From contig CAZWPQ010000001.1 in NCBI GenBank assembly GCA_964636085.1, positions 69,744 to 133,743 on the forward strand: 64,000 nucleotides of DNA. The letters run 5' to 3'. The position numbers were made by a program, and so were the translations under genes. Origin of the DNA: an uncultured Nitrososphaerota archaeon. GTDB taxonomy: Archaea > Asgardarchaeota > Njordarchaeia > Njordarchaeales > Panguiarchaeaceae. Below, piece by piece: positions 1,026 to 50,144 of the stretch. How positions within the stretch are numbered: the first letter of the stretch is position 1; every line of letters starts with the position of its first letter. Under the pieces are notes generated by a model. The model had not been told where the DNA came from and ran no database searches. It worked only from the letters and a program-made list of their open reading frames with translations.

Positions 1026-1529
1026 CTAAATTGGAAATACTCGTAGTTCTGCTCGGCATCCTATAGGCTTGCCTTCAGGATCCCTTATAATATCCTCAAC
1101 CTTTATTAGTACTCTGATTCTGACTTTTTTGGGCGGATTTTTGCTTCCTCTAGACCATATAATTTCATTAACTTCTGGGCTTATCCACACTACTGGTTCG
1201 GTTATGCGGACTTTAGCTCTTGTACCTGTAGCCTCGTCTATTGTTGCCTCTACATATTTTATGTGTTTCAGAATAAATTGTTGTAACAACCGTATAGCCC
1301 TTCGAGATCGCTTCCATAATGGAGCACTTTTTAATAGCTTCGGCGAAAATCTTATGGTCATATATCTTTCATCATCCTTTTCTTCTTGTTTTTCAAGAAT
1401 AATGGATGGAACCTTCTTTGGGCCTCTTCGTCTAGCTTTCCTTTCCTTCTTTTTTGTTTCTCTCATTTCCTTTTTTTCCTCTTTTATTGTGACGGGTTGT
1501 TCTGGGGTCTCCTCCTCATGCATGCTCAA
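1026..1529 (-). CDS. rpl31e: 50S ribosomal protein L31e (with Lys-rich N-terminal extension)
   Basis: C-terminal region …NEIIWSRGSKNPPKKVRIRV… matches the L31e signature (AIWSRGIRNxPxRIRV). The track start at 1529 is TTG. An ATG at 1523 is the likelier start. Confidence 0.6.
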   Translation of the reverse strand: MSMHEEETPEQPVTIKEEKKEMRETKKKERKARRRGPKKVPSIILEKQEEKDDERYMTIRFSPKLLKSAPLWKRSRRAIRLLQQFILKHIKYVEATIDEATGTRAKVRITEPVVWISPEVNEIIWSRGSKNPPKKVRIRVLIKVEDIIRDPEGKPIGCRAELRVFPI

Positions 1530-4937: not shown

Positions 4938-5032
4938 GCCGGGGTTGCCGAGCTAGGTACGGCGTCGGACTCGAGCAGATTGAGAAATCCGATGGCGTTT
5001 TCGCCTCGCGGGTTCAAATCCCGCCCCCGGCA
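4938..5032 (+). tRNA. class II tRNA with long variable arm, Ser(CGA) or Leu, with an anticodon-loop intron of about 11 nt
   Basis: GCCGGGG acceptor, GGTTCAAATCC T-arm, 14-nt variable arm and anticodon stem TCGGA/TCCGA. These flank an 18-nt loop, CTCGAGCAGATTGAGAAA, which implies an intron. The spliced loop CUCGAGA would give anticodon CGA. Genomic CCA follows at 5033-5035. Confidence 0.65.
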
Positions 5033-5038
5033 CCATAA

Positions 5039-5121
5039 GCGGGGGTTCCGGAGCGGTCAAACGGGCAAGGTTCAGGACCTTGTGGCGTATACCTTCGCGG
5101 GTTCAAATCCCGCCCCCCGCA
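5039..5121 (+). tRNA. tRNA-Leu(CAG), no intron
   Basis: GCGGGGG acceptor, anticodon stem CAAGG/CCTTG with loop TTCAGGA giving anticodon CAG, long variable arm, GGTTCAAATCC T-arm. It starts 6 nt after the preceding tRNA. Confidence 0.8.
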
Positions 5122-5134
5122 TTTCTATTAGACT

Positions 5135-5896
5135 CTAGTAATCTTCAGGAAGGTATAACATTGGATCTAAAACCACTATGCCGTTGCGCTCTGCGTGTTC
5201 CAATTTGTTTTTTACTTCTTCCACTATATTTCGTAGTTCCCCATATTTTCTAAGCGCATCTCCCGCAACAAAAATCATTATGCCACCACTACTCGTAAGA
5301 AACACTTCAAATTTCATTGGATCATGCATAAAATCTTCAATTATCTTGTTATTACGCGCCACAATCAGCTTAAGTCTGTTATCTACAAGGAAGAAAAAAT
5401 CCATATATTTGGTATAATCTATTTTAAGATCTAAAATAGAAGATATCTCTACTTTATTCTTAGTATCCCTATCTACTACATAATTAGCCAGCACATTCTC
5501 AATTTTCCTGTACAGTCTCTTAAGCTCAATCTCTAGATAGTCATTTGTCAAGCCATTAGTCTTTATTTTATCGATTGTTTTTCCTATAAGGTTCTCTATT
5601 TCAAATCTAATGCTTTTTATTTTTTCTATCAAAGCGATATTACTAAAATATGCCACTACAGCATATTTCTTATATTTTCTATCGTATGCAGGATCATAAA
5701 CCTTGAACTGGGCTGACAAAACCAAATATTCTTCTGTCTCCAATATAGCCTTGCCCTCCACATATAGGGCATAATCCGCTATCTGAAAACTAGTACTTAT
5801 ATCTAAGGGGAAGTCCTTTGGCAAGATTATTGATATTACGGGGCCCTCCACATCATCAAACTCAGCTAATCCAACGAAGAAATCATATTTCTTCAA
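5135..5896 (-). CDS. tandem roadblock/LC7-like protein, putative partner of the adjacent small GTPase (MglB/Lamtor-like)
   Basis: 253 aa, two beta-alpha-beta-like halves. The C-terminal …KFEVFLTSSGGIMIFVAGDALRKYGELRNIVEEVKNKL… resembles the roadblock fold. Its start abuts the stop of the GTPase gene (5896/5897). Confidence 0.45.
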   Translation of the reverse strand: MKKYDFFVGLAEFDDVEGPVISIILPKDFPLDISTSFQIADYALYVEGKAILETEEYLVLSAQFKVYDPAYDRKYKKYAVVAYFSNIALIEKIKSIRFEIENLIGKTIDKIKTNGLTNDYLEIELKRLYRKIENVLANYVVDRDTKNKVEISSILDLKIDYTKYMDFFFLVDNRLKLIVARNNKIIEDFMHDPMKFEVFLTSSGGIMIFVAGDALRKYGELRNIVEEVKNKLEHAERNGIVVLDPMLYLPEDY

Positions 5897-6886
5897 TTAC
5901 CACCCACCCAGTACCCCAATATTATTCATAATCCCCACTAGTTTTCTACTCGCTCCGGAAATAATACCTCTTATTACATCAATTTGCTTTTTAGGATTAA
6001 ACAAGGAGAAACATATAGGTCGATCATCTATTTTTCTAATACTTATATATGCTTTCGTTGAAGATCCTACATCCATTATTATGTCTATTGATTCATCATC
6101 CCCAACACCGAAGATAATATCCCACAGGTCTTTCCTGAAATCCCTAATTATTCTTTTTTCGTGCTCCAAGGACGTCAACAGTTTGGCTGGGATAATAGAC
6201 AACCAAGAGCCAATCTTTTCATCTCCTTTCATGGCTAATGGGAAACCCATACTATCACTAATAACTACTGTTCTAGAGCCCGTTAGCTTGGCTAACGTAT
6301 CTACAATATCCTCTAGCGTTTTCATGGGAAGTGCTTTAGGAAGTATTATCTCCCTTACAACCCTAAATAGACTTTCTGGATAATATATGCTGGTATTAAA
6401 TACATATATTCTTATATTGGGGAAGACCGATTTCATTTTCTCTATCATACTTTGCAATATTTTCTCCGCGTTTAGAGCATTAGGTAAGTCCTGCTTATGA
6501 GCCAATAATGCAATTGTTATGCTATCAATTTTCCTGTCCTTAATAGCGCTTGACATCAGTTTTAATATATCTACGAACTCTTTCAGCATTAACTTTATTC
6601 TCTCTCTTTTCGCCGCTGCGTCCATAACATATAGTATAACAGTATTTTCATCAAGCAAATTTAATAAAAACTCGATATTCGTTCGCTGAAATCTCCTTTG
6701 GCCTGGGGTAACAAATAGTGATATATCTGCCTTTAACACTTTTAGCATGTATTTTTCTACTCTTGTGGAAGGTTCCGTGTTCAACGCTATTGCTCTATCT
6801 AGAAATATCAAATATTTCCCTATTGATGTTTTGCCCACATTAGCTTGTCCTATCAAAATGACTTTTAATTTAGCCATATTTATCAC
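5897..6886 (-). CDS. small Ras-superfamily GTPase of the MglA/Rag-like type with a ~170-aa C-terminal roadblock-like extension
   Basis: G1 is LIGQANVGKTS. G3 is VTPGQ, with Thr replacing the usual Asp as in MglA. G4 is AHKQD. The C-terminal 170 aa (…VVISDSMGFPLA…ISIRKIDDRPICFSLF…) looks like a roadblock or Rag C-terminal domain. Confidence 0.6.
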   Translation of the reverse strand: MINMAKLKVILIGQANVGKTSIGKYLIFLDRAIALNTEPSTRVEKYMLKVLKADISLFVTPGQRRFQRTNIEFLLNLLDENTVILYVMDAAAKRERIKLMLKEFVDILKLMSSAIKDRKIDSITIALLAHKQDLPNALNAEKILQSMIEKMKSVFPNIRIYVFNTSIYYPESLFRVVREIILPKALPMKTLEDIVDTLAKLTGSRTVVISDSMGFPLAMKGDEKIGSWLSIIPAKLLTSLEHEKRIIRDFRKDLWDIIFGVGDDESIDIIMDVGSSTKAYISIRKIDDRPICFSLFNPKKQIDVIRGIISGASRKLVGIMNNIGVLGGW

Positions 6887-7087
6887 ATTCCCTATTAAGA
6901 AATTGTATCAATCGAGGGATAACCTGCCAAAAAAATCAGAACATGTTGTGATAAACATAACTAATTTTTTATAACACTCAAGTAAAAGATTTTTTGTTGT
7001 ATATTAGCATTAGTAATGAGCAAAATTTGGGCTTCATGTATAGTGATTTTTATTACCTATAATAGCGAATAGCTTGGTGATGAAGAT

Positions 7088-8419
7088 ATGAACGTACGCC
7101 AAAAGAAAACGAAGATTGATTATTCGAAACTCATTGACATATTAAACATTGATATTAATGCACTTAGGACAGCACCAAAAAAACCAACTATGCACATATC
7201 TAGTGCGATCATCGGTACTGCGGGCCATGTGGATCATGGTAAAAGTACTGTTACAGAAGCCCTTACGGGAAAATTCCCAGCCACGCATAGTGAAGAAATA
7301 CTCCGGGGAATAACTATATTCTTGGGGTATTCTCACCTAGATATTTTTACTTGTGTTTCAGGAGAGGAACTAAGCTGTCTAATATCCAACTCTACCAAAA
7401 AATGCCCAAGCAGAACATCAATGCATCACATGCGTTGTTATTCTATACTCGACCACCCTGGACACGAAATTTTGATCTCTACAATGCTCTCTGGTGCTTC
7501 CCTTATAGATTACGGCCTTGTTGTAATAGCAGCTAATGAACCATGTCCAATGCCCCAGACTAGAGAGCACGTTGCTGCCCTTGAAGTCATGGGCATAGAT
7601 AGAATTATATGTGTGCAAAATAAAATAGAACTCGTTGGCCAAGAAAAACTACTAAAACATTATCAACAGATTATCGACTTCTTTGAGAACGAAACGAGAT
7701 TCGGTACACCACCAATAATCCCAGTAAGTGCTGCCCTAAAAATAAATATAGAGCTAATATTGGCCGCTATCCTCCAGTATTTCCCACCCAAAACACCTAA
7801 TCTTGGAGGCCCAGCCTTGATGTATATAGCCCGCTCTTTCGACCCAAATAGACCAGGAACCCCCATAAAGAAAATTATTGGAGGCGTTATCGGTGGCGCG
7901 CTTAAGAGCGGCGAATTAAAAGTAGGGGATGAAATAGAGATAAGACCTGGTGTTATTGCCGAGGACGGAGAAATCATGCCTTTGTTCTCAGAAGTAGTAA
8001 GTATACGCTCTGATGCTGGACAGTCCCTTAAAAAAGCCCAGCCACATATGCTAATTGGAGTAGCCACAACACTCGACCCTGGGCTGGCAAAATCAGATGG
8101 GCTTGTAGGAAATATCGCGGGGAAATCTAAGGATCTGCCGCCTGTGACTGATAAGATAATTGTCAAGAATATAAATATGTTCGAAAAAATAATTGGCACA
8201 AGAGTTGAAAGGAAAAATTATCCGCTCAGAAAAGGAGAGGAGATATTGATAAACGCTGGCACATCCACCGTCGTTGGAGAAATCGACTTCATTCAGGATG
8301 ACGAGGCCGAAATTATATTGAGTAGACCCATATGCCTGCCTAAGGAGGAGAGAGTGGCAATACTTAGGGAAATTGACCGTGAATATAGGCTGGTTGGTTA
8401 CGGCAGACTGGACTATTAA
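7088..8419 (+). CDS. eif2g: translation initiation factor 2 gamma subunit (aIF2-gamma)
   Basis: GHVDHGKST (G1), DHPGH (G3), NKIE (G4), then beta-barrel domains II and III. The zinc-knuckle region after G1 retains only scattered Cys residues. Confidence 0.75.
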   Translation: MNVRQKKTKIDYSKLIDILNIDINALRTAPKKPTMHISSAIIGTAGHVDHGKSTVTEALTGKFPATHSEEILRGITIFLGYSHLDIFTCVSGEELSCLISNSTKKCPSRTSMHHMRCYSILDHPGHEILISTMLSGASLIDYGLVVIAANEPCPMPQTREHVAALEVMGIDRIICVQNKIELVGQEKLLKHYQQIIDFFENETRFGTPPIIPVSAALKINIELILAAILQYFPPKTPNLGGPALMYIARSFDPNRPGTPIKKIIGGVIGGALKSGELKVGDEIEIRPGVIAEDGEIMPLFSEVVSIRSDAGQSLKKAQPHMLIGVATTLDPGLAKSDGLVGNIAGKSKDLPPVTDKIIVKNINMFEKIIGTRVERKNYPLRKGEEILINAGTSTVVGEIDFIQDDEAEIILSRPICLPKEERVAILREIDREYRLVGYGRLDY

Positions 8420-12132: not shown

Positions 12133-14079
12133 ATGACCGACATACAAAATATAGTGCGGGATAAGGTTGGAACAATATTTGGTAGGGCGGGAGTTACTCA
12201 ATTCTCCATGAGGGTTGAGCAGGGAAAATCTATACAAAAGGGACAATTTCTTCTTGTGATGGGTGATGGACGCATATTATTATCCCGCGTCATCGATATT
12301 GAGACAAGAGTCACCGAGACTATTGGTTTCTGTGAAATACTTGGAGAATGCGAAGACTCTAAACTAAAACAGTGCAACAGGCCTGTTAGAGCTGGATATG
12401 AGATTTATAATCCCTCTGGAGAGTTCCTTAGTAGATTAGTTACAAGAACAACAAGGGAGGAGGGGCTATATATAGGCAAAATTCTCACGCATCCAGATTT
12501 CGTACCAGTCTATTATCGCCCAAAGGATCTCAGAGTCCACGTTCTTGTATCAGCCACAACAGGAGGGGGGAAATCCTACACACTATCAGTTTTTATTGAA
12601 GAGCTAATTAAGAAAATGAGAAAGAAAAAAAATTTTGCAATAATAATTTTTGATGTCCATGATGAATACTCCGGGCTCGCTGTCCCTAACCAACATGATA
12701 AACAGGTCGAAGCGCTTAAAGAGTATAATTTAGAGCCACAAGGATTTGAAGATGATGTCCTAATATTTGATTGGGAGAATAACCCGCCCTATCTCAGCCC
12801 GATCTTCTCGCCTGATCGTCTCATGTTCATTTTCTCTATGAAAGAGCTAAGACTTGCCCTCCAACTTAAGCAATTAATGGGGGAGAAATCCCAAATGCAT
12901 ATTGATGACCTATATAGGCTAGTGGAAATAAGTGATCTACACTTCCAAACAAAGCAGGCCTTGCTCACAAGAATCGGATCGCTAAGAGCCAGTGGATTCC
13001 TATCATATAACTATATCAAGCCCTCGGAATACTGCCAGCCTGGAAAAGTAACTATTTTTAGATTAATCGGTACACCACTTGGCGATTTGGGTGTACGTTT
13101 CTTCGTGGCGGATATCGTCCGCCAAGTATTTGAAGACAAAAAAGCTGGGAGAATTCAGCATAATGTGATTCTTGTTGTCGATGAGGCCCACTTATTTGCA
13201 CCGGCAAAAGGTAAGGACGATCCAGTTAAGGAAATCCTTATCCGTGTCGCAAGAGAAGGACGCAAAATGGGTGTCTGGTTGATATTAGCTACACAGTCAC
13301 CCAGAGATCTAAGCGATGTTATAATAATTAACTGCTCCACAATAATAGCACTAAAGATGCAACGACATGATGTTTCAAAGCTGAGCCAACTATTTGGAAT
13401 ACCAAAAAAACTTGTCGAAGTACTTACATCCGTTTCTCCAGGCGAATGCTTTATAAAGGCACCATCATTCACAATACCCCTTATGGTTAAGGTAAGACCA
13501 AGACAATCATCAGAACTTAAAGCAGAATATGTCAATTATGCACAACTAATAAAGAAAGTCGAAGAAATTGCTAAAAAAACCAGAAATATGATAGCTAAAC
13601 TAAGAAAGAAAACCCATCCAGAACCCCCACCGCCCCCATCTCCTCCAATAACCCCAAAACCAATAAGACAGACACCAAAACCTCCTGAGCCCACACCCTC
13701 GCGGGTATTTGAGGTAAGAAAAAAATATCAACGACCGCCTAGCCGACTACACAGAGAGACCGCTAAAATAAGAAGGGACGAAGAGGCTCTTGACTTCGTA
13801 GTTGGTATATTGGCAGATCAAATAAAAGGCCATGATTACGCTGCACTTGGTTTAATACGAGCAATTCTTACCTATGGGGCCCTGGATATTGTTGAGGCCC
13901 TTCATTATGCGTCGGAGGATGTTATCGATTCGCTGATAGCTGACGATATAATAAGAATCACAGATTCAAAAATTGTGCTAAATCTAGATAAAAGAATAGA
14001 GGAGTATACTGGAAAGCGTGCCTCGGATTATCTAATAGAGCTGGCAAAAAGAAAACTTTGGGATCTATTAAAGACCTAA
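12133..14079 (+). CDS. HerA/FtsK-superfamily (DUF87-type) ATPase with Pro-rich linker and C-terminal helical domain
   Basis: N-terminal barrel-like region, Walker A SATTGGGKS, Walker B VILVVDEAH, and an …ATQSP… sensor-like segment. A HPEPPPPPSPPITPKPIRQTPKPPEPTP linker precedes a ~130-aa C-terminal domain. Confidence 0.6.
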   Translation: MTDIQNIVRDKVGTIFGRAGVTQFSMRVEQGKSIQKGQFLLVMGDGRILLSRVIDIETRVTETIGFCEILGECEDSKLKQCNRPVRAGYEIYNPSGEFLSRLVTRTTREEGLYIGKILTHPDFVPVYYRPKDLRVHVLVSATTGGGKSYTLSVFIEELIKKMRKKKNFAIIIFDVHDEYSGLAVPNQHDKQVEALKEYNLEPQGFEDDVLIFDWENNPPYLSPIFSPDRLMFIFSMKELRLALQLKQLMGEKSQMHIDDLYRLVEISDLHFQTKQALLTRIGSLRASGFLSYNYIKPSEYCQPGKVTIFRLIGTPLGDLGVRFFVADIVRQVFEDKKAGRIQHNVILVVDEAHLFAPAKGKDDPVKEILIRVAREGRKMGVWLILATQSPRDLSDVIIINCSTIIALKMQRHDVSKLSQLFGIPKKLVEVLTSVSPGECFIKAPSFTIPLMVKVRPRQSSELKAEYVNYAQLIKKVEEIAKKTRNMIAKLRKKTHPEPPPPPSPPITPKPIRQTPKPPEPTPSRVFEVRKKYQRPPSRLHRETAKIRRDEEALDFVVGILADQIKGHDYAALGLIRAILTYGALDIVEALHYASEDVIDSLIADDIIRITDSKIVLNLDKRIEEYTGKRASDYLIELAKRKLWDLLKT

Positions 14080-32894: not shown

Positions 32895-34145
32895 GTGTTT
32901 TTGTGGTGTGGTAAAATGCTTAGTAATATCGCCAGATATATGATTGATCATCCCAGCAGTATTAGAGAGATAATGGAACTTGTTGCTCAGTTTGAAAAAC
33001 ACCCAGAAAAGTTTCCCCGACCATTGATATACCTGGCAGGTGGCTGGCCCCAAGATCCCCCACCACGTATACTACGGGAAAAATTTCTTGAAGTCATAAA
33101 AGATGACGAGTTGTGGAAAAAAGCTGCAAGATATAGCCCAACAATAGGTTTTCCAGATCTCCTTGAGCTCATTCCTACTTACGAAAAAGAGATATTCGGT
33201 AGAGGAGGAATACCTCCCGATTCCATAGTAGTTGGCTTGGGCTCCACTGAGCAGACAGCAGCTTTATTTAAAATGCTGTTGAATCCTGGCGATGAAATAA
33301 TCATGACGACGCCTGGGTATCTAAATTATAGGAGACAAATAGAACTTGAGCTAGATTTGAAAGCCAGAATTAAGTTTTGGGAGATTGTAAAAGATGGATC
33401 CTTTTCTCCTTCCCTTCAGGAACTTACAGACATGATTTCAAACAAGACTAGAGCCATACTTATAGGAACCCCGGGCAATCCAGATGGGCAAGTATGGGGT
33501 GATAATATACTTAGGGGGCTTCACGATTTAGCGATGGATCATGACTTTTATATATTGCTAGATGTTGCATACAGAGCCTTCATTTTTGAGGATCTACCTA
33601 GAGCATTCCAGAGACCTCCACGTGAACGCGAGATATGGATATGTTCATTTAGCAAGGAGTTTAGGGCCCCAGGATGGAGAATAAGCTACGTAATTTTACC
33701 ACCAGAATTCCGTAGGCCCCTGAACACTATTGAGCAGGCCCGCATACTTGCACCTGTAAGCCCTGTTCAAATGACTCTTATTAGATTATTTTCGGATAAA
33801 AAAGCGTTAAGCGAACTCAAAAAGTTTTATGATGATGGGAGAAAGAAATATAAAGCCATGGCCGAATACACAGTTGACTCTCTAAAGCATATAGAAAAAA
33901 TCAAGGTACTAGAGCCAAGAGGAGGCTTCTATGTGTTCTTCAATATCGAGGAAATTTGCCGTGACGATAAGAAAATATGGCGCGAACTTATCGATAAAAA
34001 ACAGCTTGCACTTGCCCCAGGTAGCGATTTCAATAATGCTAAGGGATGGCTAAGATTATCCTTCGCACCCGTTGTAGAGACACCCGAAAAACTCAGAGAG
34101 GGATTAGAGAGACTAAAGGAATACTTTAGTGAAATTCCATCATGA
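32895..34145 (+). CDS. PLP-dependent aminotransferase (class I/II, aspartate-aminotransferase family)
   Basis: Size and the …SFSKEFRAPGWRISY… PLP-lysine motif fit a class I/II aminotransferase. Confidence 0.7.
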   Translation: MFLWCGKMLSNIARYMIDHPSSIREIMELVAQFEKHPEKFPRPLIYLAGGWPQDPPPRILREKFLEVIKDDELWKKAARYSPTIGFPDLLELIPTYEKEIFGRGGIPPDSIVVGLGSTEQTAALFKMLLNPGDEIIMTTPGYLNYRRQIELELDLKARIKFWEIVKDGSFSPSLQELTDMISNKTRAILIGTPGNPDGQVWGDNILRGLHDLAMDHDFYILLDVAYRAFIFEDLPRAFQRPPREREIWICSFSKEFRAPGWRISYVILPPEFRRPLNTIEQARILAPVSPVQMTLIRLFSDKKALSELKKFYDDGRKKYKAMAEYTVDSLKHIEKIKVLEPRGGFYVFFNIEEICRDDKKIWRELIDKKQLALAPGSDFNNAKGWLRLSFAPVVETPEKLREGLERLKEYFSEIPS

Positions 34146-35066
34146 TAATACTTTATTTATGAACCAATCTGGATCAAAAGCTACAAGATCCTCATACCCC
34201 TGCCCAATCCCTACATAGCTTATGGGTTTTTTTGTTACATAGCATAAGGTAATTGCTGCTCCTCCCTTCACATCAGCATCTACTTTAGTTAGGATACTAC
34301 AGTCAACACCCACCTCTGAACTAAACGTTCTGGCTTGAACCACCAAGTCGTTTCCCATCAACGCATCAACAACCAGACATTTTATATCTGGCTTAGCAAC
34401 TCTTACAATCTTCTTCATCTCCCCTATCAGGTCCATATCTGTCCCTAGACGCCCCGCGGTATCTATCAACACAACATCTTTCTTTCTTGACGACGCGTGT
34501 TCTATAGCATCGAAACCAACAGAGGCAGGGTCTGCTCCATATTGTCGCTTTATCATATATACCTTCAATTTCTGTGAATGCTTGTATAATTGCTCAATGG
34601 CACCAGCTCTAAATGTATCAGAACATGCCAATACTACCGTGAGAGAATTTTTCTTCATTTTGTATGCCAACTTCGCTATACTAGTTGTCTTTCCACACCC
34701 ATTAGGGCCAAGAAAAACAACAGTAAATGGTTTCCACCGACCATACTTGTTATTCAAATTTTCCTCTTTTCTTTTAAGTGCTAGCTCTACTAGGTCTACC
34801 CGTGGTATGTTCAATATTGATCTTAGTTCCTCCCTAATAGCAAGTCTTATTATCTCTCTTATATCACTAAAACGCTTAACGATTTGTCCAGCTAGCCTAC
34901 TAGAAATGTTTTTTGTTATCTCTCTTGCAACATCCACAGCGATATCCGACTCTATTAGATCAAGTTCAAATTCAAACAACACATTCCTTAAATTCTTCTC
35001 TGTTAATTCCTTATAGACAACTTTATCAATAAATTTTTTAATAGCCTTCTTTAGTGACTCAAACAA
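34140..35066 (-). CDS. ftsY: signal recognition particle receptor FtsY
   Basis: …FLGPNGCGKTTSIAKLA… (G1), DTAGR (G3), TKVD (G4). The 308-aa length lacks an M-domain, so it is FtsY rather than SRP54. Confidence 0.75.
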   Translation of the reverse strand: MFESLKKAIKKFIDKVVYKELTEKNLRNVLFEFELDLIESDIAVDVAREITKNISSRLAGQIVKRFSDIREIIRLAIREELRSILNIPRVDLVELALKRKEENLNNKYGRWKPFTVVFLGPNGCGKTTSIAKLAYKMKKNSLTVVLACSDTFRAGAIEQLYKHSQKLKVYMIKRQYGADPASVGFDAIEHASSRKKDVVLIDTAGRLGTDMDLIGEMKKIVRVAKPDIKCLVVDALMGNDLVVQARTFSSEVGVDCSILTKVDADVKGGAAITLCYVTKKPISYVGIGQGYEDLVAFDPDWFINKVLS

Positions 35067-37175: not shown

Positions 37176-38579
37176 TCATTTCTTCGGGAGTTTAACATAT
37201 CTTCTATATAACCTTATACACAACGATATACCAATCACTACTATTATGATCGTCGCAACTAATTTCCAAACCCATTCAGGTATTTCTTTTTCTTTCTTCT
37301 TTGGTACAATTATCTTATAAATATACATTTTCGATTTATAATCACCAAATTCTGAGCGGACAGTTGCATTAAGAACGAGCCACCTAGCCGTCGAGTTTAT
37401 CTTGGGTAATTCACACATAAACTTGTCAGTAGGAACATCAATTGGTTCTGCACAATATGTTATTGTATCATTATTTTCATCCCTCAGTTCGTAGTATAGC
37501 TTTATTTCCGATATATTCCCAAAGCCATATCCAAGTATAACATACACATCACACGTTTTATTAACCTGGGGTTCGTCGGGGATAATATCAAGTACCGGGT
37601 ATTTTGGTATACTCAAGAACCCCTCTTTTAGGTACATGCTAACATAAATTTTAAGTTCGTCCAGATTTTCTAGTCCATAGTGTTTCCACCAGATGACTCC
37701 TTGGTCGTCAATAATTACTACAAGGGGCAAAAACGTGTTGTTGATAGTTGTAAACTCATACAATGTTCCATTGGACGATCTATTATATATGTATGTAACA
37801 TTATCATTCACAATCATTATGTTTGTATTTTCTTGTTCGTTACTATTGTTGTATGTATTCGAGATATCCACGATTAACGAAAATATGGATTCAGCATCTA
37901 TCTCTATTATGCTATTAAGCATTTCCTCGATGCCCAGTACATCGTTCATATATGACAGATTCGCATAGACAATCAAGTATAGCCGATACCCCTCATCTAA
38001 GACATTGATGTCCCCATCGCCATTCGAAATATTTAGACATGGTATCACGCCATAGAACGATTTCGGATATTTTGATCCATATTCATCATATATATAATCC
38101 TCAGCATTTACCGGAACTATGAGTCCCGAGTAGTTTTCCAGCTTCTTCTCAAGCCTCGATAAGAAGACCCTATGGAGGGGGTAATATGTTAGATTAATAG
38201 ATTCACTCTCATTCGCCATAATGGAATCCATATACTCTAAATAGTCACTAATAGTACTTACGTTTACCTGTTCTATATCCTCAACGTTTATACTGCCATT
38301 GTATATTAGGTAAAACAGCTCGTCCATTGTCGATACATTTATATAGGTGCCGTTTTTCAGAATTATCCTTCCAAATGGCATAATGGAGACATTTGTAACA
38401 TTTGTAGCATTATCGTCGTTATCCATTATTATTATTCTAAATGATAGGTATATGGCCTCATTAGAGCTGGTATCCACATCTACACTACCTAACGTCCTAT
38501 GTATAGTGAATGCCAATACTGGGTATGATATAAGCATCAGACATATAAACAAAGGAATTAGATGTCGCATTACTATCAC
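37176..38579 (-). CDS. secreted, C-terminally membrane-anchored glycoprotein (~22 N-glycosylation sequons)
   Basis: N-terminal signal peptide (MIVMRHLIPLFICLMLISYPVLAF), C-terminal TM plus basic tail (…IIIVVIGISLCIRLYRRYVKLPKK), and very dense N-x-S/T sequons. Confidence 0.5.
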   Translation of the reverse strand: MIVMRHLIPLFICLMLISYPVLAFTIHRTLGSVDVDTSSNEAIYLSFRIIIMDNDDNATNVTNVSIMPFGRIILKNGTYINVSTMDELFYLIYNGSINVEDIEQVNVSTISDYLEYMDSIMANESESINLTYYPLHRVFLSRLEKKLENYSGLIVPVNAEDYIYDEYGSKYPKSFYGVIPCLNISNGDGDINVLDEGYRLYLIVYANLSYMNDVLGIEEMLNSIIEIDAESIFSLIVDISNTYNNSNEQENTNIMIVNDNVTYIYNRSSNGTLYEFTTINNTFLPLVVIIDDQGVIWWKHYGLENLDELKIYVSMYLKEGFLSIPKYPVLDIIPDEPQVNKTCDVYVILGYGFGNISEIKLYYELRDENNDTITYCAEPIDVPTDKFMCELPKINSTARWLVLNATVRSEFGDYKSKMYIYKIIVPKKKEKEIPEWVWKLVATIIIVVIGISLCIRLYRRYVKLPKK

Positions 38580-38658
38580 TTCCCAGTACCAATATATTCT
38601 GGCTTAAAAATTTCTATAAAATCAAACATTGAAAAAGACCCTTATACATCCCCCTTAT

Positions 38659-39375
38659 TTATTTGATCAGTATTCTCTCTATCCTCTGAACTAGGTCTGG
38701 TGGAGGACTACGATCCAATAGCCAATATATCGAGGACACTAAAAATAGCGCATTATCCGATTCCCCTATTAGATCCTCCGTTGCTATCTCCCATGTGGAT
38801 ATAGCCATGACCCTACCATTACCAAATTTTGCCACACAAGACAAAATAGCATCTGGGGGCTGTTGATTTTTTTCACTCCTGACAAGTATGTCAATGGGAT
38901 AGGCCTTCTTTTGTGCTAGTATGAATCTAACAGCATTTCTAAATACCAATTCACTTATGCCTATCGTGATTCTATGATTCCTGTTTATGTTCTTCGTAGC
39001 AAACTCTAGCTTTCCATTCTCACGTATAATTGTGGGGTCTGGATATATTCCAATATCTTTGAGAAGACTATATGTGGAGTCAAAAAATGGTACACTATCA
39101 CTATCGACCATTACGAGAAGCCTGTGGCCAGCATGAACGTGTTTTGTTATTATGTTTATTTCATCAGAAGAATACCTATCATATTTCTTTCCTGCAATTA
39201 TAAGAAGCCTACCTTTAGACAACTCATCAGAGGATATCCTTGATATGTAATGTACCTTAAACTCCAGCCACTCCAAGAACCCACCAAAAAACTCAATCCT
39301 ACCAGCGATCTCTGGCGAAGTATCCATGAGTATAGCTTCCAAATTATCCACCAAGATACCTATATTCAAAAACAT
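38659..39375 (-). CDS. hypothetical protein (238 aa)
   Basis: Long ORF downstream of the glycoprotein gene on the same strand. No confident motif. Confidence 0.4.
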   Translation of the reverse strand: MFLNIGILVDNLEAILMDTSPEIAGRIEFFGGFLEWLEFKVHYISRISSDELSKGRLLIIAGKKYDRYSSDEINIITKHVHAGHRLLVMVDSDSVPFFDSTYSLLKDIGIYPDPTIIRENGKLEFATKNINRNHRITIGISELVFRNAVRFILAQKKAYPIDILVRSEKNQQPPDAILSCVAKFGNGRVMAISTWEIATEDLIGESDNALFLVSSIYWLLDRSPPPDLVQRIERILIK

Positions 39376-47217: not shown

Positions 47218-49059
47218 TCAATCTCTTTTTGTTATTTTATGTCTCAGTAGAGCCCACGGTATGAGTATTTTCATGGGAATACTAGAGTTGCTCCTAGAAT
47301 ATATAACGGCACACCTAGTTGGCAGGTTCATAAGCACAGTTTTATCTACAGGTAATTCCATGAATTTTTTGAGGGTTTTTATTTGGAGAGGTGTCAGGCC
47401 AAATAATGTGTATGTATTAACAGTTTTTAGTATCCTAGGATTCAAATCTTCTGGACTTTGAGTCGAGAATTCTATCCTTAGCCTGAATTTTCTGCCTTCC
47501 CTAGCAATTCTTTCAACCCATGAAACTGTCCTCATGACCCATTCTTTTTCGTTAGCATCGTATACAAATCTAGGAAAATAATTATGTGCCTCGTCGATTA
47601 GCAGCATTACTGGAGGAAATAATTCATTGTAGTCTCTAAGCTTTGTCATTGCTATCTTACTAATGATATGCATTACTACGATTCTCCTAGCAACAATTGA
47701 CGGAACCATATCAACTCTTATAATGTTAACAGTCCTAGACCGTAGCATATACTTAATATCAATATCTGAAACTCCCCCAGCATCAAAAATTCCCTCCTCC
47801 AATACCGCGGCAATCCTACGCAATATTGCTTCTCTCGTAGCCTCACTAATCATATCCTTTGGAAAGCTCGCATTGTCGAGCCACCTGTAAAACTTGTCCA
47901 ATGTATTGTTTCTTTCCCTATACACACTCCTAAATCTTCTAACTAGTTTCGGCAAGACATAATACCCTTGGGGAGACAATGCTGGGAGATAATACTGAAG
48001 AAAACTAGGACCAATATCGGAAAAACGTATAGTAAAATGCATCGTTTTTACTTTGCCATGGAAATCATCCACCTCGACTTCCTGCTCAAGTTTTGGAATC
48101 CATACAATAATATCCTCTATACTCTTAGGCATTATCCCAAGATCCCTCCATATTTTTATATCAAAATCGCTGGGTTTTGTTTCATCATCCTCTTTTATGG
48201 GATCCTCACAAATCATTGAATACTCATTGTGTGTGTCTATAACAACAACCGCTCCCTCCACATACTCAACAAAGTTATATATATCGTTCTTACACTTCGC
48301 CGTTTTGCCTTTACCTGTAGTGCCAGTTACTAACTCATGCTCAAAGAGAAGAGATTTTCTCATTCTATACGGAATACATTTCCCCGTTCGGGGATCGACT
48401 ATAACTTCGTCACCAAATATCAGGGCGCCATATACGGGGCCATCTGAAGGCAATCCATAGATTATATTAATTATTTCCTGCGAGGGTATATACGCAGGGG
48501 CCCTTATGTGGGGAGCGAAATTCACATCGCCCCTAGTTACGATATTACCTCCATTTCTTTTCAATGTACAGATTGGACTCAACCCCACCAAGGGCACTAG
48601 TTCAAGGAATTCTGTGTCTCCACTCTCTATCATCTGGGATGTTAGTATATTTCTTGCATCGGATACATCTCTATCCACAAGCTCATGCCACGCTACATCA
48701 TACCCCATCATCCTGATTATGCCTGCTATGTATTCACCATGTATGTAGTCAAATATGATTAACGGGAAGCCTAGTCTTATTCTCGATGACCACTCTGAGA
48801 AAAGCCTTATCCACAATAACTTCGAGGCTACCGACCCCCCAACATGGACTGTAAGTCTTTTAGGTATTACTAGATACCCTACCTCTACACAGCCACTGAG
48901 CCAAGGATCCTGTATCTCATCACCTACTTTCTTTTTAAGACAAGGACGTGTAGATAATCGAAAAATCGCCTCGCCAAGTATCTCTGGTTCCTCTCTACTC
49001 ACAATTTTTTCTTTTCTCGATATTACGAGGTACTTATCTAAACTCAAGCTTGACCCCAC
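47218..49059 (-). CDS. herA: HerA-type (FtsK/HerA superfamily, DUF87) ATPase, downstream partner of NurA
   Basis: Walker A …VTGTTGKGKT…, Walker B …VMLLIDEAHNYF…, and an …FSTQSPEDL… sensor-like motif. Its start overlaps the stop of the nurA-like gene by 16 nt. Confidence 0.6.
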   Translation of the reverse strand: MGSSLSLDKYLVISRKEKIVSREEPEILGEAIFRLSTRPCLKKKVGDEIQDPWLSGCVEVGYLVIPKRLTVHVGGSVASKLLWIRLFSEWSSRIRLGFPLIIFDYIHGEYIAGIIRMMGYDVAWHELVDRDVSDARNILTSQMIESGDTEFLELVPLVGLSPICTLKRNGGNIVTRGDVNFAPHIRAPAYIPSQEIINIIYGLPSDGPVYGALIFGDEVIVDPRTGKCIPYRMRKSLLFEHELVTGTTGKGKTAKCKNDIYNFVEYVEGAVVVIDTHNEYSMICEDPIKEDDETKPSDFDIKIWRDLGIMPKSIEDIIVWIPKLEQEVEVDDFHGKVKTMHFTIRFSDIGPSFLQYYLPALSPQGYYVLPKLVRRFRSVYRERNNTLDKFYRWLDNASFPKDMISEATREAILRRIAAVLEEGIFDAGGVSDIDIKYMLRSRTVNIIRVDMVPSIVARRIVVMHIISKIAMTKLRDYNELFPPVMLLIDEAHNYFPRFVYDANEKEWVMRTVSWVERIAREGRKFRLRIEFSTQSPEDLNPRILKTVNTYTLFGLTPLQIKTLKKFMELPVDKTVLMNLPTRCAVIYSRSNSSIPMKILIPWALLRHKITKRD

Positions 49060-50144
49060 CTATATAGATACCTTCCCCACCTTAGTTGATTGTACATAAG
49101 GATGTCGGCTATGCCACATTTTTTGAATGCTGATAATACCCTAAACGCAATATATCTCTTCTCCTCATCACAAAACCGTGCAATCTTGTCGGCACGACCA
49201 ATCACATAACTGAAACCATTCCCAAGCTGCAGATCAGCTGATATTATCTCCAATACTTGATCCTTTCCATATTCCTCCAGAACGCAATAGGGAAATTCAT
49301 ACCTAAAAACTACCCTTCCCTTTGTCTTCACATAGAAGAAAACAGGCTTCATATAATAAGGCACGCCATTAACTAGCTTATTGTCATATAGAAACATGAT
49401 GGTTCGTGTATTAGGAGGGAGATACATTGATAATAAATCGGCGTCTGTCAACGCCTCCACATTTGTTATTCCTGATAGCCAAGTTGAGAAGGGATTTTTC
49501 ACGATTTTGATGCAGATTATTGCCCTATCTACAAGAGATTTGATCGCGGAATAAAACTTTTTAAAATACCTCCTAGAAATTATTGGACCATCCCAGAATA
49601 CGACATCTAACACACTCCCATATTCTTCGGCCAATTCTCTAATAGTAACCGTCTCTAGAGACATAAGAATATCCCTCACTTTCCTTCTAACTTGCTCTGG
49701 TACTCCTCCTCGCCGCCGAATAATCGACACGGAAAACCTCCAGACATCTTTTGCACCAAATGTTTCATTATTTCTCATGCTGAGACCGAAGACAGCAGTC
49801 CTCGCAATTATGACCCTGAAGGGATGTAGCCTTAATGAGAAAGCTCCCCCATCAACACCCACAACATTTTTCCCTTTAAATATGGTCAACGGATTTATCT
49901 CTGGCATTCCCTTTATGATCCCATCCTCTAAAGGTATTATGCCACTATCCTCACTCCGATCAACTATTTTTAATAGTATATCATCTCCAAGTTTTCTACT
50001 TAGGTATTTTGATAAAACCTCCTTAATAGCCGATTCTATAGCATCCATAATCGCCAGACTTGGTATATACTCACTTTCTAAACGGTGCTTAACGCTAAGC
50101 ATTGGATGACATAATTTATCCAACTTTAAAGCACGTGCGGGCAA
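49044..50144 (-). CDS. nurA: NurA-like 5'-3' nuclease
   Basis: 366 aa with …VVGVDGGAFSLRLHPFRVIIARTAV…, comparable to NurA motif I (…DGS). It is translationally coupled to the downstream HerA-type ATPase. Confidence 0.5.
   Translation of the reverse strand: MPARALKLDKLCHPMLSVKHRLESEYIPSLAIMDAIESAIKEVLSKYLSRKLGDDILLKIVDRSEDSGIIPLEDGIIKGMPEINPLTIFKGKNVVGVDGGAFSLRLHPFRVIIARTAVFGLSMRNNETFGAKDVWRFSVSIIRRRGGVPEQVRRKVRDILMSLETVTIRELAEEYGSVLDVVFWDGPIISRRYFKKFYSAIKSLVDRAIICIKIVKNPFSTWLSGITNVEALTDADLLSMYLPPNTRTIMFLYDNKLVNGVPYYMKPVFFYVKTKGRVVFRYEFPYCVLEEYGKDQVLEIISADLQLGNGFSYVIGRADKIARFCDEEKRYIAFRVLSAFKKCGIADILMYNQLRWGRYLYRWGQA

Follow-up and report, generated by a model that had tools for sequence, protein, structure and literature searches.

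Described Rag, longin and MglA systems

Rag GTPases and longin GAPs (GATOR1, FLCN-FNIP) form the core of eukaryotic amino-acid sensing. In the Rag/Gtr proteins (RagA-D, Gtr1/Gtr2; PF04670) a roadblock domain follows the G domain at the C-terminus. These proteins exist as obligate heterodimers of two paralogous subunits and relay signals to TORC1 at the lysosome or the vacuole; their G3 box reads DxGGQ. The GAP complexes, GATOR1 NPRL2-NPRL3 or SEACIT Npr2-Npr3 and FLCN-FNIP or Lst7-Lst4, are heterodimers of two large subunits, the GAP longin being joined by a second longin subunit, and carry DENN or NPRL2-type C-terminal domains. The TOR kinase is absent from known archaea, and Asgard archaea have no mTOR kinase domain (10.1101/2020.10.19.343400).

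The single parts of such a system, Rag-like GTPases and longins, are already known in Asgard archaea. Rag-like GTPases with a GTPase-roadblock architecture were described by Tran et al. 2024 (PMC10933270); the PDB entries 8zla and 9m28 are named 'LokiRagM', and 8yl2 is titled only 'GTP-binding protein'. A 2025 survey reported that a GP motif at the b1-b2 junction is specific to GAP-type longins, and posed as an open question which GTPase partners the Asgard FLCN/SMCR8-type longins with this motif (PMC12290439). The sole Asgard DENN/longin-type operon described has a Rab-like, not a Rag-like, GTPase (Liu et al., 10.1101/2020.10.19.343400). A further point of comparison is MglA, a single-domain GTPase with a separate roadblock protein, MglB; its G3 box reads TVPGQ in group 1 and GTPGQ in groups 2-5 (PMC4316618).

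The locus described here lies in a 64-kb stretch of DNA, hereafter the window, from an uncultured archaeon with relatives among the archaea of hydrothermal sediments, and encodes a Rag-like GTPase directly followed by a partner with a predicted longin domain. With Rag/Gtr it has in common a roadblock placed C-terminally of the G domain, a G4 box of the form HKxD, a G5 box of the form TSI[W/Y], and the pairing with a longin-domain regulator. It differs in its G3 box, in having one Rag-like GTPase in the operon and window, and in its partner, a single protein of about 250 aa that carries a small alpha/beta module instead of a DENN or NPRL2-type domain. The Asgard Rag-like GTPases, which are the closest solved sequences, albeit at low identity, have their domains in the same order and also show an HKxD G4 and a TTIY-type G5. 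However, 8yl2 retains the canonical G3 Asp (WDLGGQ), and we found none described in a conserved operon with one specific longin, as in this very small family; nor did we find in the literature an account of this operon or of its MglA-type G3 box. In contrast to the surveyed FLCN/SMCR8-type longins, the GP-motif longin here is fixed beside a Rag-like GTPase. With MglA-MglB the locus shares a G3 box without Asp but with an invariant Pro-Gly-Gln, and a roadblock similar in sequence to MglB; here, however, the roadblock is fused in cis and the extra partner is a longin, and the GTPase differs from MglA in G4, in G5, in having no intrinsic Arg finger, and in a G domain that scores higher against Rag and Arf.

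The GTPase and its roadblock domain

Both genes of the pair, with all of their features given below, lie on the (-) strand. The GTPase gene (5897..6886) is an open reading frame of 329 aa from a GTG at 6886, although its true start is likely the ATG at 6877, which gives the 326 aa of the database copy P0001 and of homologs. The partner gene (5135..5896) encodes 253 aa. The original prediction of two abutting genes of these lengths was borne out exactly by the ORF list and the junction sequence: both frames are real, and the GTPase stop codon TAA (5897-5899) is followed, with no spacer, by the TTG start of the partner (5894-5896). The last GTPase codons contain a G-rich Shine-Dalgarno-like run, GGGTGGGTGG (5900..5909), 4-13 nt upstream of that TTG; its placement is consistent with translational coupling of the two genes.

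The G domain comprises residues about 5-185 (6332..6874), as delimited by family alignments A2 and A6 and by hhalign. Its motifs, read from the family alignments and a motif table over 11 loci, are G1 GQANVGKT (6827-6850), G2 with an invariant Pro39-Ser40, G3 VTPGQ (6698-6712), G4 HKQD (6488-6499) and G5 NTSIY (6383-6397). The G1 (GQANVGKT(S)), G3 and G4 boxes originally named were all recovered, and the family as a whole conserves them. The G3 box reads [V/I]-x-P-G-Q in 11/11 loci, with Asp in 0/11. It had been called an MglA hallmark with the Asp replaced by Thr; the missing Asp and the xxPGQ pattern stand, and the replacement was misread by one residue, since with DxxGQ aligned to V-T-P-G-Q it is Val that occupies the Asp position (Val or Ile family-wide). 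Family members in which these motifs are present show HK[Q/R]D at G4 and T[S/T]I[Y/F/L] at G5, which hhalign placed on HKMD and TSIW of RagA. An arginine beside G2, R42, was considered as an intrinsic Arg finger and rejected; it is unconserved in the wider family, and the GTPase is therefore taken to have no intrinsic Arg finger.

Pfam Gtr1_RagA was the top-scoring family for the GTPase (E = 5.1e-14; 52.7 bits, the cutoff being 22; residues 8-212), although this model may not discriminate fully, because Gtr1_RagA is also among the Pfam domains of MglA BLAST matches (PMC4316618). In hhalign the GTPase matched RagA with a probability of 98.2% (E = 4.5e-14, score 100.6), the alignment extending into the CRD. 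The G domain matched Arf1 just as well (E = 3.1e-15, score 102.1) and MglA at E = 1e-9 (score 68.2). The closest PDB sequences were the Asgard Rag-like GTPases 8yl2 (E = 1.5e-6) and 8zla. MglA chains were absent from the best 60 PDB sequence matches and from the best 50 fold matches, and an NCBIfam search gave no MglA-type match.

Residues 186-329 (5900..6331) form the C-terminal domain, identified as a roadblock from AF2 topology, Foldseek and hhalign. The extension had been predicted as a roadblock- or longin-type domain of ~170 aa; its roadblock nature was upheld and its length comes to about 145 aa. The AF2 model (6-sequence alignment; pLDDT 65, with switch regions below 50) has the order a-b-b-a-b-b-b-a, a complete roadblock domain, and an invariant Asp211 sits in its 'ISDSMGFPL' b1-b2 hairpin. 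The nine best Foldseek matches to the GTPase model were all full-length Rag/Gtr chains, aligned over 294-347 columns and both domains, and the full-length matches included RagA, RagC and Gtr1; the suggestion that a GTPase with a C-terminal roadblock follows the domain logic of Rag/Gtr thus agrees with the best folds. In sequence, hhalign linked the domain to MglB (E = 4.3e-5 over 114 columns) and gave no significant alignment with the human RagA CRD (E = 0.14), to which no sequence similarity was detectable, or with the NPRL2 control. If Rag/Gtr and MglB are a guide, the GTPase probably dimerises through this domain.

The partner protein and its family

The fold of the partner emerged from structure prediction only, after sequence searches had come up empty: direct searches returned nothing in Pfam (E <= 1), NCBIfam or, with phmmer and hmmsearch, the PDB. 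In the AF2 model (4-sequence alignment, pLDDT 75), residues 1-146 (5459..5896) adopt the order b-b-a-b-b-b-a-a, most like the longins of GAP complexes, and such longins were the top-ranked folds in both searches. The partner had been expected to consist of tandem roadblocks, as in MglB or Lamtor. Neither the order a-b-b-a-b-b-b nor roadblock similarity was found, and the partner is instead, on its modelled fold, a protein with a longin domain of the FLCN/NPRL2 class, the class that supplies the GAPs in the Rag system of eukaryotes. This class would make the module more Rag-like than first proposed, and would give it a different regulatory logic, that of an Arg-finger longin GAP and not of a roadblock GAP or GEF.

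The longin domain contains a GP motif, 'FDDVEGPVIS' (residues 13-22; 5831-5860), in which G18-P19 mark the start of b2, at the b1-b2 junction of the AF2 model; both residues are kept in 17/17 family members. A candidate arginine finger, Arg73 (5678-5680), lies in the b4-b5 hairpin. When the partner was aligned with NPRL2 by hhalign, G18-P19 fell on G20-P21 and R73 on R78 (domain-level E = 1.3e-4, controls not significant), although the probabilities against NPRL2 and FLCN, 20-53%, indicate a weak sequence link; in the FLCN alignment R73 falls one residue off R164. R73 is kept in the window clade, in the P0017-P0020 group and in P0027, is absent in P0025, and is shifted in other distant members. 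Four relatives of the partner match Pfam Folliculin (PF11704) over the Arg-finger region; the ortholog P0008 exceeds the gathering threshold (23.4 bits against 23.3) and the other three fall below it. The partner in the window, a putative GAP, is itself below Pfam thresholds.

A disordered linker leads to a C-terminal module of about 70 aa (residues about 166-238; 5183..5401) with the order b-b-a-b-b-a in the AF2 model. Compared with the partner's own longin, the GTPase roadblock, MglB, the RagA CRD and the C-terminal parts of NPRL2 and FLCN, this module gave E >= 0.06 throughout. Profile comparison of the two C-terminal regions, each predicted to be roadblock-like, thus returned an MglB-type roadblock for the GTPase and no roadblock match for the partner.

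The partner family is rare, a set of 1.84 billion proteins containing no more than 17 representatives of it, and its pairing with the GTPase is strict. The GTPase lay directly upstream of the partner in 11/11 distinct first-round loci, at a spacing of -11 to +33 nt, and the pairing persists among them down to 16% partner identity. A scan that started from the GTPase found the partner adjacent in 12/12 full-length matches, several of which are on the same contigs as first-round loci. The description of the pair as a compact, self-contained GTPase module is in keeping with its retention at every locus examined. No Rag paralog of the GTPase was found in the 64-kb window (tblastn) or in the operon at any locus, and neither the operon nor the window contains a further longin gene. 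A membrane protein encoded downstream in a sister clade gave no significant alignment with the GP-motif longin (E = 0.16). One distant family member, L013, is on a MAG deposited as Asgard.

A proposed switch and its bearing

We lean, by a modest degree, towards reading the two genes as a translationally coupled operon for a minimal Rag-type switch, with the longin partner as its GAP, working through an Arg finger. The GTPase, with its G domain fused to a roadblock domain in the Rag/Gtr architecture, would dimerise through the latter; with no second Rag paralog in the operon or window, a homodimer or a monomer would be likelier than an obligate heterodimer. The longin partner would bind the GTP-bound G domain and speed hydrolysis by reaching into the nucleotide pocket with Arg73, which the model places beside the GP motif, much as NPRL2 Arg78 and FLCN Arg164 act on Rag GTPases. 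The cellular output would probably be a growth, nutrient or membrane-associated signal.

Other readings of the pair were weighed against this one. Mon1-Ccz1, TRAPP, DENN and Ragulator-type platforms work as exchange factors, scaffolds or platforms for membrane recruitment. The partner could accordingly be a cognate regulator of this kind and not a GAP, which we consider rather unlikely, given that its top folds in both searches come from GAP complexes, that the reportedly GAP-specific GP motif is invariant in its family, and that R73 aligns with the catalytic Arg78 of NPRL2. It is more doubtful still that the pair is an MglA/MglB-type module, with an MglA-related G domain, the fused roadblock as a built-in MglB-like GAP or dimeriser, and the downstream protein as an accessory. 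Such a module would account for the xxPGQ box without Asp, a feature reported only for MglA (PMC4316618), for the significant hhalign match to MglA, and for a C-terminal domain that resembles MglB and not the RagA CRD. Against it, RagA and Arf1 clearly outscore MglA (about 101-102 vs 68), G4 and G5 are Rag-like where MglA has NKRD and another G5, MglA is missing from the best sequence and fold matches and from the NCBIfam result, the G2 Arg is unconserved, leaving no intrinsic Arg finger, and a longin partner has no counterpart among the MglA regulators MglB and RomR/RomX.

An Arf-family GTPase with a longin-fold, SRX-type domain would also recall the SR-beta/SRX pair of the SRP receptor, an identification that we regard as very improbable. 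SR-beta has an N-terminal membrane anchor, and inspection of the GTPase sequence revealed no transmembrane segment; the GTPase has a roadblock domain, which SR-beta lacks; the FtsY gene of the window (34140-35066) is unlinked to the pair; and the scores are much weaker than those for Rag with FLCN/NPRL2.

If the pair is a Rag-type switch with a longin GAP, its combination of features invites an evolutionary reading. An MglA-type G3 box and a cis-fused MglB-like roadblock occur here beside G4 and G5 boxes of Rag type and, in the same operon, an NPRL2/FLCN-type longin with a candidate Arg finger. The ancestral module of a Rag GTPase and its longin GAP might thus survive in this family in minimal form, as an evolutionary link from MglA/MglB of prokaryotes to the Rag-GATOR1/FLCN axis of eukaryotes; we put this forward tentatively, as a possibility that we would sooner doubt than accept. 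If the source lineage is truly outside Asgard, as the 'Nitrososphaerota' label of its nearest genome suggests, the Rag-GAP logic would be older than the lineage of Asgard archaea and eukaryotes. For one family, the locus gives a genomic answer to the survey question of which GTPases partner GP-motif longins (PMC12290439), since here such a longin stays tied to a Rag-like GTPase across deep divergence. The locus also bears on whether the Arg-finger GAP mechanism of longins predates eukaryotes, on how a GTPase of Rag type can function when its G3 box lacks the aspartate, and on whether homodimeric complexes may have preceded the eukaryotic heterodimers. With two proteins and about 580 residues in total, the system is open to reconstitution.

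Upstream of the operon, an AT-rich intergenic region of 201 nt (6887..7087), presumed to be its promoter region, separates it from a divergently transcribed aIF2-gamma gene (7088-8419, (+) strand); this neighbour is kept in L003-L006, L008 and L016. A sigma-70 promoter scan returned matches at the count expected from shuffles, the bacterial model being uninformative for archaea. A known defence system was ruled out, PADLOC giving only a trivial P-loop match. The other gene content of the window is housekeeping only, and in L009, the nearest GTDB representative, housekeeping genes are mostly 45-76% identical to those of the window.

A conserved two-gene operon

The GTPase gene (329 aa, GTG start; 5897..6886, minus strand) and the partner gene (253 aa, TTG start; 5135..5896, minus strand) were both present as originally described. 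No spacer separates them: the GTPase TAA stop (5897-5899) is followed immediately by the partner TTG (5894-5896), and a Shine-Dalgarno-like G-rich run lies upstream of that TTG at 5900-5909. The codons for the Gly-Gly-Trp C-terminus of the GTPase (5900-5908, minus strand) also make this GGTGG run for the partner gene. Judged from sequence, the true GTPase start is likely the ATG at 6877 (MAKLKV...), since it agrees with the 326-aa database copy and with homologs. No paralog of either gene was found elsewhere in the 64-kb window.

Word-index searches returned six GTPase homologs only, and the partner matched only itself; when 1.84 billion representatives were scanned exhaustively with HMMER, 17 partner-family proteins emerged. 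In all 11 distinct loci the longin gene is directly preceded, on its own strand, by a Gtr1_RagA-type GTPase of 313-329 aa (cut off by the contig edge in L015 and L020); the spacing ranges from -11 to +33 nt, and the pairing persists down to 16% partner identity. When metagenome contigs were scanned reciprocally with the GTPase profile, the partner was immediately downstream of every full-length match (12/12), several of these contigs being the same as those of the first round. The other four matches belong to a sister clade whose GTPase has the same build (G3 'VFPGQ', G4 HKQD, G5 TSIY, roadblock-like C-terminal domain; pairs on metagenome contigs at L035:114-1774, L036:86-1626 and L038:1-1493). 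In that clade the next gene downstream overlaps the GTPase gene and codes for a protein of ~250 aa, anchored in the membrane by a transmembrane helix at its N-terminus; hhalign against the partner family was not significant (E = 0.16). By eye, its C-terminal stretch 'ISITFFGVDSQIGPVFKYT...GGERGIEGYVIVEL' resembles a GP-motif longin. The sister-clade GTPases retain a similar C-terminal ending, 'GGW/ESW', a constraint that may act at either the protein or the mRNA level.

Archaeal housekeeping genes surround the pair, including those for L15e, S19e, L44e, V-type ATPase, exosome and aminoacyl-tRNA synthetases. The aIF2-gamma gene (7088-8419, plus strand) diverges from the operon across a 201-nt AT-rich spacer. 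This arrangement was also present in L003-L006, L008 and L016 (five further lineages) and was not kept in L007/L009, L010 or L013. The conserved neighbourhood may simply reflect shared ancestry; a tie between the operon and translation initiation through aIF2-gamma would be speculation. On the other side, a tandem pair of plus-strand tRNA-Leu genes (anticodon GAG, 4938-5035; anticodon CAG, 5039-5121) runs towards the partner gene from its 3' side and ends 13 nt short of the partner stop codon. Lengths of 83-106 nt, against a 71-position model, were found for several further tRNA matches in the window and suggest that these contain introns or long variable arms.

A mosaic GTPase

The G1 (GQANVGKT), G3 (VTPGQ) and G4 (HKQD) boxes were present as predicted. 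The claim that Thr replaces the G3 Asp was a one-residue register error, the residue there being Val; the MglA-type character of the box stood. G3 is [V/I]-x-P-G-Q in every one of the 11 distinct loci, across which G4 is HK[Q/R]D, G5 is T[S/T]I[Y/F/L] (aligned on TSIW of RagA), G2 is an invariant Pro-Ser, and a '[S/G/F]DxxG/A[F/L]' hairpin of the C-terminal domain contains an Asp that never varies.

Gtr1_RagA was the best Pfam family (E = 5.1e-14, 52.7 bits, residues 8-212), with Arf (35.9 bits) and SRPRB as runners-up. The closest solved sequences in the PDB were 8yl2 (E = 1.5e-6) and 8zla; the titles of 8zla and 9m28 read 'Rag-like small GTPase from Asgard Lokiarchaeota'. The AF2 model, of moderate quality (pLDDT 64.7, shallow six-sequence alignment) and with poorly modelled switch regions, has a G domain and, after it, a second domain in the roadblock order a-b-b-a-b-b-b-a. 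Its top nine Foldseek matches in the PDB were all full-length Rag/Gtr chains (294-347 columns), and single-domain Arf, Rho and Ras proteins ranked after them.

A 10-member family profile was then compared by hhalign with reference sequences checked against PDB sequences; because the templates, here and for the partner below, were single sequences, the probabilities are depressed. RagA scored 100.6 (E = 4.5e-14), with an alignment that reached the first helix and strand of its C-terminal roadblock domain (CRD), Arf1 scored 102.1 over the G domain only, and M. xanthus MglA scored 68.2. The isolated C-terminal domain aligned end to end with the MglB roadblock domain (E = 4.3e-5, 114 columns) and gave no alignment with the human RagA CRD or the NPRL2 longin, and is thus nearer in sequence to MglB than to the CRD of RagA. 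The predicted C-terminal roadblock is borne out by strand order, Rag/Gtr fold matches and the MglB alignment. Since its motifs, architecture and roadblock sequence match different systems, the GTPase is a mosaic of Rag-type architecture, Rag-like G4 and G5, an MglA-type G3 and an MglB-like roadblock.

The longin partner

Sequence searches of Pfam, NCBIfam and the PDB gave no match to the partner. In its AF2 model (pLDDT 75.4, shallow alignment), residues 6-144 follow the order b-b-a-b-b-b-a-a, which is that of a longin and not of a roadblock; a disordered linker and a small b-b-a-b-b-a module (residues 168-237) follow, the latter with no detectable relative in profile comparisons. On both counts the original description of tandem roadblocks is unsupported.

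According to a 2025 survey, FLCN, NPRL2, SMCR8, C9orf72 and one class of Asgard longins share an arginine finger and a GP motif where b1 meets b2, and non-GAP longins lack them (PMC12290439). The motif of the partner is 'FDDVEGPVIS', in which G18-P19 open b2 of the model; F13, G18 and P19 are invariant in 17/17 family members. Against human NPRL2, hhalign placed residues 3-86 of the partner family on residues 5-91, G18-P19 on G20-P21 and R73 on R78, and the longin comparison at domain level gave E = 1.3e-4; control alignments with MglB and with the C-terminal domain of the GTPase each gave E ~0.1. Arg78 is reportedly the arginine finger of NPRL2. The alignment with FLCN spans the b3-b5 region and sets R73 one residue off R164. 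Four relatives matched Pfam Folliculin over the same region, and ortholog P0008 scored 23.4 bits, just over the gathering threshold of 23.3. These links to NPRL2/FLCN are weak individually, yet agree with the fold result.

A candidate Rag-type switch and its lineage

The best-supported reading of the pair is a minimal Rag-type switch. From the folds, motifs and gene pairing established here we infer the remainder, from binding to output: the GTPase would probably dimerise through its own roadblock domain, translational coupling would pair it stoichiometrically with the longin-domain regulator, and that regulator would most likely act as an Arg-finger GAP. A longin serving instead as GEF or scaffold is unlikely beside the GP motif and the placement of R73 on NPRL2 R78. 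An MglA/MglB-like module with its roadblock in cis, towards which the G3 box and the MglB alignment point and from which the Rag/Gtr fold matches and the longin partner point away, seems less probable still. An SR-beta/SRX-like pair, for which the SRPRB match ranks below Gtr1_RagA, is very improbable.

Rag-like GTPases with a fused roadblock have already been described from Asgard archaea (PMC10933270; PMC4917890), and some are now crystallised (PDB); FLCN/NPRL2-like longins have been described there also (Liu et al., 10.1101/2020.10.19.343400; PMC12290439). The operon of Liu et al. (10.1101/2020.10.19.343400) is a different one, comprising a roadblock, a Rab-like GTPase and a DENN protein, and its GTPase is by their account not a Rag; the 2025 survey does not settle which GTPase works with the GP-motif longins (PMC12290439). 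In the literature we found no description of a conserved operon joining a Rag-like GTPase and a longin, of a Rag-type protein whose G3 is MglA-type and lacks the Asp, or of a single-subunit, DENN-less longin partner. Judging by the titles of PDB entries on LokiRag and on a 'Roadblock-Longin protein' of Lokiarchaeota, related work probably exists that is unpublished or inaccessible.

The housekeeping genes of the window are mostly 45-76% identical to those of the nearest GTDB representative, L009 (CAZVPA010000010.1). In clusters at 90% identity the proteins they encode stand alone or nearly so (1-3 members), and the lineage is therefore sparsely sampled; Guaymas Basin sediment is one source sample. 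The contig of a distant family member, L013 (JBNGVF010000001.1), belongs to one of seven hydrothermal-metagenome MAGs deposited as Asgard. Labels conflict inside this small protein family, L009 being labelled Nitrososphaerota (TACK) and L013 Asgard: either both groups contain the family or one of the labels is unreliable. A non-Asgard lineage, if true, would make the finding considerably more interesting.

A DUF4350/GIFT-like gene and an adjacent uncharacterised protein of ~460 aa (37176-39375, minus strand) recur as a pair in the MAG labelled Asgard (L013:6239-8822), at 25-27% identity to the window copies; the L013 copy of the former has IFT52_GIFT matches and a faint OST48_N match. A HerA/FtsK-like ATPase (DUF87; 12133-14079, plus strand), with a strikingly proline-rich segment (PEPPPPPSPPITPKPIRQTPKPPEPTP) before its C-terminal domain, is distinct from the window's canonical HerA-NurA pair (47218-50144). 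An ORF at 1026-1529 (minus strand), which by eye resembles ribosomal protein L31e, is extended at its N-terminus by some 50-60 aa rich in Lys, Glu and Arg.
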